A stretch of DNA of 64,000 bases from an uncultured Clostridia bacterium (GCA_948524275.1 CAOSLI010000005.1:16968-80967); one strand, 5' to 3'. Counted from the first letter of the stretch, positions 48,673 to 51,068 are shown. The notes: generated from the sequence alone by a model not told the origin. Made by a program: numbers and translations.

Positions 48673-49494
48673 ATGCTCATACTTAACGGCAAAGAGATTC
48701 TTACGGAGCGGTATCCAAACAACGAGACCAAAGTCAAGGACTTTGAGGATGCCATCATAGATGGGGAGAACATTCTCGAGTTCAAGTACACCAGCGATGC
48801 TGATTTAGTAGAGCTGATGTTTGCGAAGGGTCGCATTGATGAGTTTGGTGGTTCGTGCACACTTTTTATATGGTATATGCCATATAGTCGCATGGACCGA
48901 AAGATTGAGGGTGACTTATTTACACTTCAGTATGTCACGAACTTTATCAATTGGCTGAGCTTCACAGAGGTCATCGTAATGGAACCGCACTCTGATAAGA
49001 CAATGAAACTTTTGGAAAGGGCAACTGCTGTTTATCCTGTAAAGGATTGGCTTGCTAAAGTACAGGAAGACATTGGCTTCGGAGAAGGCGACTTTATTGT
49101 ATTTCCCGATAAGGGAGCTGCGGCGCGTTATGCTGATAGTGATTATGCAAATATCTGCATTTTTGAGAAAAAGCGTAATCCTATAACAGGTAACATCGAG
49201 GATATGCGTATCAAGGAAGGAACCGTAAATCCTGGAGCAAAATGTATTATCATTGATGATCTTTGCTCAAAGGGAGGAACCTTTGCTTGGGCAGGAAGTA
49301 TCCTTAAAAACTTGGGAGCAAGTGAGGTTTACTTGGTTGTTTCTCACTGTGAAGAGACAATCTTTGAAGGAAAGCTTCTTGCCGATGATTCACCTATCAG
49401 TAAAGTGTACACAAGTACGTCTATCATGTGCAAAGAGCATCCTAAAATTAAATTTATGGATGTTGATGCAACTCTGTATGCGTACAATGACTAA
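48673..49494 (+). CDS. Ribose-phosphate pyrophosphokinase-like (Prs family) protein, NAMPT-associated. Candidate ADPR-pyrophosphate synthetase (Adps-like).
   Basis: A Prs-like fold (PYSRMDRK..EPHSDKT) and the PRPP-binding loop IIIDDLCSKGGT. It is shorter than canonical Prs. Confidence 0.55.
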   Translation: MLILNGKEILTERYPNNETKVKDFEDAIIDGENILEFKYTSDADLVELMFAKGRIDEFGGSCTLFIWYMPYSRMDRKIEGDLFTLQYVTNFINWLSFTEVIVMEPHSDKTMKLLERATAVYPVKDWLAKVQEDIGFGEGDFIVFPDKGAAARYADSDYANICIFEKKRNPITGNIEDMRIKEGTVNPGAKCIIIDDLCSKGGTFAWAGSILKNLGASEVYLVVSHCEETIFEGKLLADDSPISKVYTSTSIMCKEHPKIKFMDVDATLYAYND

Positions 49495-49511
49495 CAAGGA
49501 GGAACTATTTT

Positions 49512-51068
49512 ATGTTTAAGCAAATGATTGAAAATCCTGCTTTGCTGACAGATGGTTACAAATTCTGTCATAAGGATCAGTATCCGGCAGGTCTCGAGTG
49601 GACATATGAAGCATGGACACCGAGAAAATCTCGGATTGAAGGGGTAACCCATGCAGTATTCTTTGGACTTCAAGGAGCACTGGCAACATTGTACTGGAAA
49701 TGGCAGAAGGATTTCTTCGAAAGACCGCTTGATGTGGTAATGGAGGAAATCAAAGAAGCCCTCAGTGGTACATTTGGCAAAACTAATCCTGAGATGGTAA
49801 AGAACTACGACTATTCTCACTTTGAGAAGCTTCATAAGCTCGGTTATTTACCGATTAAGATTAAAGCTCTGAAAGAAGGTACATTTGTACCGATTGGGGT
49901 ACCGATGTTTACCATTGAAAACACTCTGCCGGAGTTTTTCTGGTTTACAGGATACTTGGAGACTGTTATATCCTGCTTGATTTGGCAACCTATGACCGAT
50001 GCTACAATAGCAGATAAGTATAGGAGAATTCTTGACTCTTATGCTGAACGCACTGGCTGTAATCAGCCGGGAAGAGTTTTCAATCAGGGTGGTGACTTTT
50101 CTATGCGTGGCATGGGAAGTCCGGAGGCAGCATATCGGTCTACGCCTGGTCACCTGCTTAGTTTTGGAGGGTCTGCAACTATTCCTGCAAGGAATTATTT
50201 AATGGCCTATTATGATGCTAAGCCGGATGTTATCGCTTATGCTCCTTCAACAGAGCACAGCGTAATGGAGTCTTATGGTCGCGAAGAGAAAAAAGCTCTC
50301 TTGAGACTGATTACCGAAGTGTATCCGAGCGGAATTATAACATTTGTTGCAGATACTTATAATTTGTGGAATTTTGTTGACAATGTTCTGACAGATCCTG
50401 AGGTAAAGGCAGCAATTATGCGGCGTAATGGTAAAGTCAACATTAGACCGGACTCAGGTGATCCGACTAAAATCATTTGTGGAGATAAGGATGCAAATGA
50501 GGAGAACATCGACGAACGTTTGAAGGGCTTTGCTGGAACTGTAAACAAGGGACTGATTCAGCGTCTTTTCGAAATTTTTGGCGGAACCAAAAACGACAAG
50601 GGTTTTATTGAGCTTGACTCTCACATTGGTGCTGTATATGGAGATTCCATTACACCTGAAAGAGCAATAGCAATATGTGAGGGCTTGATGAAAAATGGAT
50701 TTGTTTCTGTAAGCGTTGGCTTGGGCATTGGTTCATATACATATCAGTATATGACACGTGATACCTTGGGCTTTGCACTTAAGGGAACTGCCGAAATTAT
50801 AGACGGAGAATTTAAAGCAATTTATAAAGATCCGGCAACAGATACGGACAAGTTCAAGAAATCGCAAAAAGGTATGGTTGCTGTTGTTTTTGAAGATGGG
50901 GACTACAAACTCATTGACAATTTCACATCTGAAACAATTGAAGATATCAAAGGCAATATGCTAAAAGATGTTTTTATGGATGGTGATTTTGTAAGCACTC
51001 AAACCTTTGATGAAATCAGAGAATTGGTTGCAAGTGAATCCAAGAGGGTGTACAACGGCAAATTTTAA
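49512..51068 (+). CDS. nadV: nicotinamide phosphoribosyltransferase family protein (NadV/NAMPT-like; could equally be a Namat-type enzyme)
   Basis: N-terminal LLTDGYKFCHKDQYP and about 518 aa, with a terminator after the stop. Confidence 0.75.
   Translation: MFKQMIENPALLTDGYKFCHKDQYPAGLEWTYEAWTPRKSRIEGVTHAVFFGLQGALATLYWKWQKDFFERPLDVVMEEIKEALSGTFGKTNPEMVKNYDYSHFEKLHKLGYLPIKIKALKEGTFVPIGVPMFTIENTLPEFFWFTGYLETVISCLIWQPMTDATIADKYRRILDSYAERTGCNQPGRVFNQGGDFSMRGMGSPEAAYRSTPGHLLSFGGSATIPARNYLMAYYDAKPDVIAYAPSTEHSVMESYGREEKKALLRLITEVYPSGIITFVADTYNLWNFVDNVLTDPEVKAAIMRRNGKVNIRPDSGDPTKIICGDKDANEENIDERLKGFAGTVNKGLIQRLFEIFGGTKNDKGFIELDSHIGAVYGDSITPERAIAICEGLMKNGFVSVSVGLGIGSYTYQYMTRDTLGFALKGTAEIIDGEFKAIYKDPATDTDKFKKSQKGMVAVVFEDGDYKLIDNFTSETIEDIKGNMLKDVFMDGDFVSTQTFDEIRELVASESKRVYNGKF

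Follow-up and report, generated by a model that had tools for sequence, protein, structure and literature searches.

A NARP1-family gene pair within a conserved chromosomal cassette of gut Clostridia: a candidate nicotinate-using route from ADP-ribose to NAD+

What do a short Prs-like gene and a NAMPT-like gene produce together when they stand side by side on a bacterial chromosome? Such a pair, encoding proteins of 273 and 518 aa, lies in a stretch of 64,000 nucleotides from an uncultured Clostridia bacterium (GCA_948524275.1, CAOSLI010000005.1:16968-80967), hereafter the window. An initial annotation of the same DNA had placed both open reading frames (ORFs) at exactly the coordinates and lengths that we find (Table 1), and had likened them to NARP1, the phage pathway that rebuilds nicotinamide adenine dinucleotide (NAD+) from ADP-ribose (ADPR) and nicotinamide, with a classical Prs plus NadV as the alternative between which sequence alone would not distinguish. 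Our analysis agrees with NARP1, in view of an adenine-binding clamp, a score of 484 bits to a phage Namat and an Adps-like score against a Prs model; by the clamp, the closest structure and the Prs-model scores, sequence largely can separate the two. Judged by sequence, the pair is a member of the Adps/Namat (NARP1) family and not a housekeeping Prs/NadV. We further propose that it is probably a deamidated version of NARP1, which would use nicotinate instead of nicotinamide and form nicotinate adenine dinucleotide (NaAD) at the core of a conserved chromosomal cassette.

The 518-aa protein matches NAPRTase and NAMPT_N in Pfam and scores above the cut-off of NF006629, and its best match in the PDB is 9w5x/9w5w (484 bits, E = 5e-144), compared with about 170 bits for classical NAMPTs. 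The chain in these entries is Namat of Bacillus phage SPbetaL1 (100% tblastn match), which was characterised by Osterman et al. (bioRxiv 10.1101/2024.02.11.579819) and Lan et al. (NAR 2026, PMC12774641), and every residue discussed in the structure paper (PMC12774641) maps in register onto the window protein. The adenine clamp, formed in SPbetaL1 Namat by R40, F392, Y396, T398, R399, and D400, is retained as R, Y, Y, T, R, and D, with R41 of the window protein aligned to R40, the SCL stacking residue. The SCH motif reads GSYTYQYMTRD in the window and GSFTYQYNTRD in SPbetaL1, positions 3 and 7 being aromatic, and the window motif fits the published Namat signature GS-X-phi1-X-phi2-X-phi3-TRD (PMC12774641). 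The catalytic core is likewise kept (D13, Y15, F189, R192, R306, D308, and the catalytic His of PATEHSVM, H245 in our numbering). The R40A/F392G exchange in SPbetaL1 Namat leaves the activity with phosphoribosyl pyrophosphate (PRPP) intact, so that the clamp serves only the use of ADP-ribose pyrophosphate (ADPR-PP) (PMC12774641).

The 273-aa partner is 39% identical to Adps of SPbetaL1 and 42% to Adps of phage FADO, compared with 22% to E. coli Prs; its K166 is aligned to the catalytic K162 of SPbetaL1 Adps, and relative to E. coli Prs it is shorter by ~21 residues at the N-terminus. Against TIGR01251 (cut-off 113 bits) it scores 93.4 bits, while the validated Adps proteins of SPbetaL1 and FADO score 106 and 96.5 bits, respectively, and E. 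coli Prs 422.7 bits. It falls under the cut-off of all 11 Prs models, with sub-threshold matches to the Prs family. The profile phrog_619 was dropped as evidence for Adps because it does not discriminate, E. coli Prs reaching 193 bits and the window protein 204. Model scores, identities, the catalytic lysine and the adjacency to the Namat-like gene suggest that the protein is Adps-like and not a housekeeping Prs. For the pair as a whole, chemistry of the ADPR-PP type in general is very probable.

In the classical alternative, the 273-aa protein would be a dedicated PRPP synthetase and the 518-aa protein a phosphoribosyltransferase, either NadV-like or nicotinate-specific, producing nicotinamide mononucleotide (NMN) or nicotinate mononucleotide (NaMN), which a host adenylyltransferase and NadE would carry to NAD+. 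Database names as well as the Pfam and NCBIfam matches are in line with this scheme, prs-nadV operons were interpreted in this manner in the older literature (PMC2330246), and SPbetaL1 Namat still uses PRPP in vitro. We nevertheless regard it as highly improbable, as the position below every curated Prs cut-off and the shortened N-terminus are features of the validated Adps proteins. Moreover, SPbetaL1 Adps pyrophosphorylated ADPR and gave no product in an assay meant for Prs activity, the substrate of which is ribose-5-phosphate in the figure legend and PRPP in the text (bioRxiv 10.1101/2024.02.11.579819). The clamp that serves ADPR-PP is strictly conserved in the whole clade to which the window protein belongs (see below), and the cassette contains no adenylyltransferase.

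The NARP1 systems of phages SPbetaL1, Bas63, and FADO and the copy in Paenibacillus foliorum have the same order as the window, a short Prs-like gene directly 5' of the NAMPT-like gene; the window proteins are 39-42% identical to Adps and 50-51% to Namat, and the catalytic lysine of Adps, the catalytic core of Namat and the complete adenine clamp are all present. An architecture identical to NARP1, as first annotated, is thus borne out for gene order and family, but not for the residue that recognises nicotinamide. This aspartate, which contacts the amide (D215 in SPbetaL1 Namat, D219 in human NAMPT), is replaced by A222 in the window (GGSATIPA versus GTDTIPA), and the pocket is further altered at A242 (S249 in the window), H187 (Gly), S239 (Tyr), and I220 (R227). 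The window protein also belongs to a separate clade tied to NadE and nicotinamidase, its gene is chromosomal and not phage-encoded, and its predicted product is NaAD and not NAD+.

The changed pocket is shared by the relatives of the window protein. Its closest database homologues, about 120 proteins with 50-87% identity that stem from Clostridia, Sphingobacterium, Myroides, Christensenellaceae, and Nomurabacteria of the candidate phyla radiation (CPR), all keep the clamp and carry either Ala or Ser at position 215; at position 242 most have Ser. We classed 180 Namat-family loci by residue 215, covering the window, metagenome-assembled genomes (MAGs), isolates, 80 IMG/VR contigs, and 80 metagenome contigs. 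The Ala/Ser-type proteins form a single clade in a neighbour-joining (NJ) tree (bootstrap 175/200), are at most 59% identical to the Asp-type proteins, and conserve the adenine-binding clamp strictly. Only four of 491 alignment positions have residue sets that are disjoint between the two clades, namely 187, 215, 239, and 242; two of these four are among the seven residues of the nicotinamide pocket (p = 0.001), and the other two sit 2-3 residues from F189 and A242, while none of the 13 residues in contact with the ribose-phosphate, AMP or adenine differs between the clades. In one contig matching the window (GCA_948845805.1, positions 9515-11045 of locus L181 in our numbering), the Namat-like gene is called as two pieces of 33 and 442 aa, probably because that record contains a frameshift or an assembly error; the window copy is intact.

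Hydrogen bonding of the amide by Asp219 designates nicotinamide as the substrate (PMC12143786; PMC7096376). Table 2 of PMC4919578 (citing Khan et al., 2006) lists loss of activity for human NAMPT D219A and 'switch the substrate affinity' for D219S, and the D215A exchange in SPbetaL1 Namat lowered NAD+ output 8-fold (PMC12774641). The loss of this aspartate, together with the link of the clade to NadE and nicotinamidase, suggests that nicotinate is the likely co-substrate and NaAD the product.

That link emerged from the neighbourhoods. In gut Clostridia the block starts with NadE, followed by Adps, Namat, nicotinamidase, vWA, PP2C, and kinase genes, and all seven are kept by close relatives in eight gut Clostridia MAGs, where the flanks differ and consist of ordinary housekeeping genes; the functional unit is larger than the two genes to which it had first been confined. 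In every related Clostridia locus the pair has NadE next to it. The Sphingobacterium and Myroides operons run from Adps and Namat through a small NH3-type NadE and a 304-aa nicotinamidase homologue to NrtR; those of Christensenellaceae read Adps, Namat, NadE, NrtR; and in a CPR bacterium an isochorismatase precedes Adps, Namat, and NadE. Neighbours within 6 kb were counted where a locus had 3 kb or more of flanking sequence on each side. NadE was found at 21/23 Ala/Ser-type loci, as was nicotinamidase (21/23), and one or the other at all 23, in contrast to 0/83 Asp-type loci in each of the three counts (Fisher p ~3e-20 for the association of residue type with linkage, the loci not being phylogenetically independent). 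The association persists among NrtR-linked, i.e. cellular, loci (14/16 Ala/Ser-type versus 0/17 Asp-type, p = 1.5e-7) and among IMG/VR contigs (2/2 versus 0/78), while an Adps-like gene is adjacent in loci of both types. Besides, NadE occurs within the clade in two positions and two non-orthologous forms, a 639-aa Gln-type in the window and a ~260-aa NH3-type in Sphingobacterium, Myroides, Christensenellaceae, CPR, and viral contigs, and nicotinamidase also comes in two forms, which argues for selection on the linkage and not mere inheritance.

Both neighbours in the window fit the functions assigned to them. NadE scores 819 bits against NF002730 (cut-off 473) and contains the Pfam domains CN_hydrolase and NAD_synthase. 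The 327-aa protein, the true start of which is probably M24 at 51355, has Pfam and NCBIfam scores under the cut-offs; its PDB sequence matches are all nicotinamidases, as are the top 12 Foldseek matches of its AlphaFold2 model (predicted local distance difference test score 89). The triad D73, K219, and C265 and the metal ligands D115, H117, and H185 are invariant in 30 homologues, and the protein is 48-51% identical to the 304-aa product in the Sphingobacterium and Myroides operons. By its predicted isochorismatase-like fold and its catalytic residues it is nicotinamidase-like.

From these components a four-enzyme route can be envisaged. The nicotinamidase-like protein would convert nicotinamide to nicotinate, the 273-aa Adps-like enzyme would form ADPR-PP from ADPR and ATP, the 518-aa Namat variant, having kept the clamp and lost the amide-recognising Asp, would condense ADPR-PP with nicotinate to NaAD and PPi, and the divergently encoded NadE would amidate NaAD to NAD+. 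Between what nicotinamidase yields and what NadE takes up there is a gap, exactly the one that the pair fills; it is normally closed by PncB and NadD, and the route would bypass both. Neither PncB nor NadD was found in the window cassette or in the Sphingobacterium, Myroides, Christensenellaceae, and CPR operons. An input of ADPR is consistent with several lineages having NrtR, the DNA binding of which is relieved by ADPR (PMC2330246). The most likely role would be the recycling of ADPR and niacin after NAD+ consumption or NADase damage. On balance, we lean towards an undescribed nicotinate ADP-ribose transferase route, a four-enzyme module in at least four bacterial phyla including CPR and in some large phages, controlled by NrtR in some lineages and coupled to a TerY-P-like phospho-switch in gut Clostridia. 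The published accounts of NARP1 that we consulted do not mention nicotinate, NadE, NaAD, or nicotinamidase.

Alternatively, the pair could be a canonical NARP1 that makes NAD+ directly from ADPR and nicotinamide, with NadE and nicotinamidase being merely co-located and co-regulated parts of the Preiss-Handler pathway. The intact clamp and catalytic core are compatible with this, the bacterial NARP1 of P. foliorum is active (PMC12774641), and NrtR regulons often mix salvage genes (PMC2330246). Nevertheless, canonical chemistry appears rather unlikely to us. It leaves the all-or-none link of residue 215 to NadE or nicotinamidase (23/23 versus 0/83) unexplained and offers no reason why the clade-specific changes all fall at the pyridine site, and the enzyme would lose its own substrate to a nicotinamidase from the same operon. 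PncB and NadD, which a parallel Preiss-Handler route would need, are absent from these operons. As for P. foliorum, its validated Namat is 72% identical to that of SPbetaL1, which exceeds the 59% maximum between the two types, so that it can be taken as Asp-type.

Several observations weigh against a nicotinate-using pathway. The SPbetaL1 D215A variant retains residual activity with nicotinamide (PMC12774641), a point also in favour of canonical NARP1, and Ala-type enzymes might therefore still use this substrate. Two Ala-type loci (L101 and L123) are without a NadE nearby. The variant being a single clade, one origin each of the substitution and of the linkage may suffice, and the loci counted do not represent independent events; NadE, as the universal last step, could be linked through co-regulation alone. 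In a Clostridium MAG (L011, 6002-6739), a 246-aa gene that contains only the NAPRTase N-terminal domain adjoins NadE; it is a possible PncB remnant and thus a caveat for the bypass, and its position beside the cassette would suit canonical NARP1 as well. Finally, the NJ tree of Adps and Prs proteins, with a single genuine Prs reference, gave no clean split (support 0/200), and ORFs labelled 'Prs-like' by their best BLAST match are only 21-29% identical to E. coli Prs. The Adps assignment hence rests on the model scores, identities, catalytic lysine and adjacency described above: of the profile or phylogenetic comparison with characterised proteins that the initial annotation had suggested, the scores favour Adps/Namat and the Adps/Prs tree does not cleanly separate the two. 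With these points considered, we still regard the nicotinate/NaAD mechanism as the probable one.

The proposed pathway shares features with several known systems. A second Prs paralogue beside a NadV-like gene, as in the window, is also found in the NrtR-regulated prs-nadV operons (Rodionov et al., 2008; PMC2330246), which were read as PRPP supply plus NMN synthesis in an arrangement called unexplained; Cytophaga hutchinsonii has prs-nadV and nadE in one NrtR regulon (PMC2330246). An NrtR-type regulator follows the genes in the Sphingobacterium, Myroides, and Christensenellaceae relatives, whereas the window cassette is without NrtR and carries the vWA/PP2C/kinase triad instead. On very long (bacterial) contigs we also observed Asp-type Namat-family genes with the motif GSYTYEYVTRD next to NrtR (L159, L165-L167, L171, L175-L177, and L180), some of them with a more Prs-like partner; these are probably classical NrtR-regulated prs-nadV operons, and may be ordinary NARP1 in bacteria.

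With the Preiss-Handler pathway (PncA, PncB, NadD, and NadE) the proposed route has in common the start at nicotinamidase, the NaAD intermediate and the end at NadE. It differs in that PncB and NadD are absent from the cassette, the pair would condense the substrates in one step, and ADPR would be used in place of PRPP and ATP-derived AMP. The NARP2 or NadV-NadM route, consisting of Nampt and an NMN adenylyltransferase, includes a NAMPT-family enzyme of similar size and shared fold; in contrast, the window cassette is without an adenylyltransferase, the 518-aa protein has the clamp that NAMPTs are without, and the equivalent of Asp219 is missing.

The three remaining genes of the block resemble, by their sequences, the TerY-P triad (Anantharaman et al., 2012; Gao et al., 2020; as cited in PMC11090510), in which vWA, PP2C, and Ser/Thr kinase genes occur in the same order. 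The window vWA protein has a metal ion-dependent adhesion site (MIDAS), and the 589-aa protein places an N-terminal protein-kinase-like domain before a CxxH...CxxC element, the kinase of TerY-P having a zinc ribbon or OB fold; the domain order in the window was read from weak Pfam matches. Unlike TerY-P, the triad has no PADLOC match, and the kinase-like protein ends in a long repeat or beta-propeller-like C-terminus (weak propeller matches). The triad is conserved with the NAD genes in all complete Clostridia loci, even at 37-50% identity, and is part of the conserved block only in Clostridia. In the papers that we consulted, we found no report linking this triad to NAD+ salvage genes.

To whom the pathway belongs is a separate question. 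The horizontally acquired context assumed at the outset is real as a composition island of ~46.4-55.8 kb, with a GC content of 0.35-0.45 versus ~0.27 around it, and the island is a GC-rich, horizontally moved block in a low-GC gut Clostridia chromosome, not within a prophage. A prophage in the upstream 38 kb was rejected, as the genes there include ABC transporters and a radical SAM enzyme but none for phage structure. Phage, integrase, and transposase genes were not found in or beside the island, either in the window or in five related genomes. A search for empty sites with the exact sequence of the flanking SnoaL-like protein returned only island-carrying contigs.

In an anti-defence reading, the cassette would be cargo of mobile-element or phage origin, protecting an invader or the host's own mobile elements from NAD+-depleting immunity. 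The GC-rich block does occupy different chromosomal sites in different genomes, and modules of the type that the neighbouring TerY-P-like triad belongs to have been reported as antiphage (PMC11090510). A four-gene version occurs on two phage-like IMG/VR contigs, of 116 kb (L021, 7160-11720) and 146 kb (L022, 7983-11403), both with the Ala215 variant and their own NadE and short isochorismatase; the order in L021 is Adps-Namat-NadE-isochorismatase-ThyX, and in L022, where the Namat-like gene encodes 565 aa, no Adps was found within 6 kb. In the CPR locus, an Apyc1-like gene stands next to NadE. Against this reading, the upstream region is ordinary chromosome, the search above found no phage, integrase, or transposase genes, PADLOC returned no defence match in the island at E <= 0.001, the triad included, the kinase-like protein is almost absent from phages (only four weak or partial matches in phage genomes), and the operon carries NrtR, a housekeeping ADPR-sensing repressor, in Bacteroidota and Christensenellaceae. 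The absence of phage genes and the NrtR in the operons of other phyla make cellular recycling at least as likely as anti-defence, and for the window copy, on a bacterial chromosome, the anti-defence role first suggested is not supported; we consider it improbable, while the variant on the large phage-like contigs could serve counter-defence.

The Apyc1-like gene just mentioned (L020, 5392-6114, on a CPR Nomurabacteria contig) has a metallo-beta-lactamase fold, matches the Apyc1 (anti-Pycsar) family and follows NadE directly. At L010, a gene of the metallo-beta-lactamase fold lies just upstream of NadE.

The genes and candidate transcription signals of the cassette are collected in Table 1.

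Table 1. Genes and candidate regulatory features of the cassette, in window positions
Feature	Position	Strand	Description
Terminator-like hairpin after NadE	46399-46418	-	Consensus scan
NadE	46460-48379	-	Glutamine-dependent NAD+ synthetase, 639 aa; divergent from the pair; NF002730, Pfam
Promoter-like site, NadE	48479-48507	-	TTGACA-17-TACAAT, TG extension; 11/12 consensus positions
Promoter-like site, Adps-Namat operon	48557-48585	+	TTGCAA-17-TATAAT, TG extension
Adps-like gene	48673-49494	+	273 aa; Prs-family ADP-ribose pyrophosphokinase homologue
Namat-like gene	49512-51068	+	518 aa; ADP-ribose transferase homologue
GC-rich 12-bp hairpin after the pair	51099-51127	+	31 nt 3' of the stop codon
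Promoter-like site, downstream genes (before the nicotinamidase gene)	51184-51212	+	TTTACA-17-TATAAT, TG extension
Nicotinamidase-like protein	51286-52269	+	327 aa as ORF; PDB matches, fold, catalytic residues
vWA protein, TerY-like	52291-52992	+	MIDAS DGSGS; Pfam VWA and vWA-TerF-like
Terminator-like hairpin between the vWA and PP2C genes	53029-53057	+	13-bp stem
PP2C-type phosphatase	53078-53956	+	PF13672, E = 3e-12
Kinase-like protein	53963-55732	+	589 aa; weak Pkinase and Bud32 matches

The genes of the pair are on the same strand, separated by 17 nt, and each has its own Shine-Dalgarno sequence (AGGAGG, 10 nt 5' of the ATG of the Adps-like gene; AAGGAGG, 8 nt 5' of that of the Namat-like gene). 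The promoter-like sites of NadE and of the pair are divergent, and both fall within 48380-48672. The element CTATTGCAAAATTATGTAAAT at the promoter of the pair is kept in the related loci L006-L009 and L013, and TTGACATAAT, at the position of the NadE promoter, is seen again in L008, L010, L011, and L013. A 17-mer, TGTGATATAATTGTSAC, occurs twice in the 64-kb window against 0.05 copies expected, at 48575-48591 and 51202-51218; each copy overlaps one of the two plus-strand promoter-like sites of the cassette and covers its -10 box, and the 17-mer may be a shared operator of both. In the same promoters, related loci carry TTATGT(A/C)AA or TTTACATAA elements and not TGTGATATAATTGTSAC, and a common operator is possible; TTATGT(A/C)AA itself was not retained as an operator, its seven occurrences in the window comparing with 5.35 expected, and is kept as a lead only.

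The terminator assigned to the end of the pair is plausible and not certain: a hairpin is present and its region folds better than shuffled sequences (z = -3.4), but the T-tract is weak (TTTAATAAT), which is why the consensus terminator scan did not flag it. It is a probable terminator or attenuator. An Rfam scan of 44-58 kb detected no riboswitch or other RNA.

Beyond the cassette, some further features of the window are worth recording. Just downstream of the island, in DNA of host-like GC, four genes at 56697-62007 that are not conserved beside the cassette elsewhere encode a HerA/FtsK/TrwB-like ATPase (56697-58613, with weak PADLOC mad8 and HerA matches), a 236-aa protein without matches, a Zn-dependent phospholipase-C-like protein, and a protein of 585 aa that has a 2H (LigT-like) phosphoesterase domain at its C-terminus. 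The four together could make up a system for conflict or defence. Upstream, a TrmA/RumA-type RNA uracil methyltransferase (43948-45277) appears split into ORFs at 43948-44391 and 44423-45277, pointing to a pseudogene, a frameshift, or an error in sequencing. A minus-strand patch at 38254-41557 in a run of plus-strand genes contains a PBECR3 toxin-like nuclease, an Ltp-repeat lipoprotein with dockerin, a HAD hydrolase fragment, and tRNA-Leu (41474-41557), and the matching MAG contig also has RelB/YoeB there; the patch resembles the remains of a small mobile element and is distinct from the NAD island.

If the proposed pathway is correct, the conversion of ADPR and nicotinate to NaAD would be a new reaction and a new entry point in NAD+ metabolism, a network charted over decades. 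It would also explain the NrtR-controlled 'prs-nadV' operons, a puzzle since 2008, and many genes of gut and soil bacteria named 'nicotinate/nicotinamide phosphoribosyltransferase' or 'ribose-phosphate pyrophosphokinase' would be misannotated. Position 215, together with 187, 239, and 242, provides a simple sequence marker that separates the two pathway types. A nicotinate-using version would let a phage or a cell rebuild NAD+ where the host nicotinamidase quickly removes nicotinamide.

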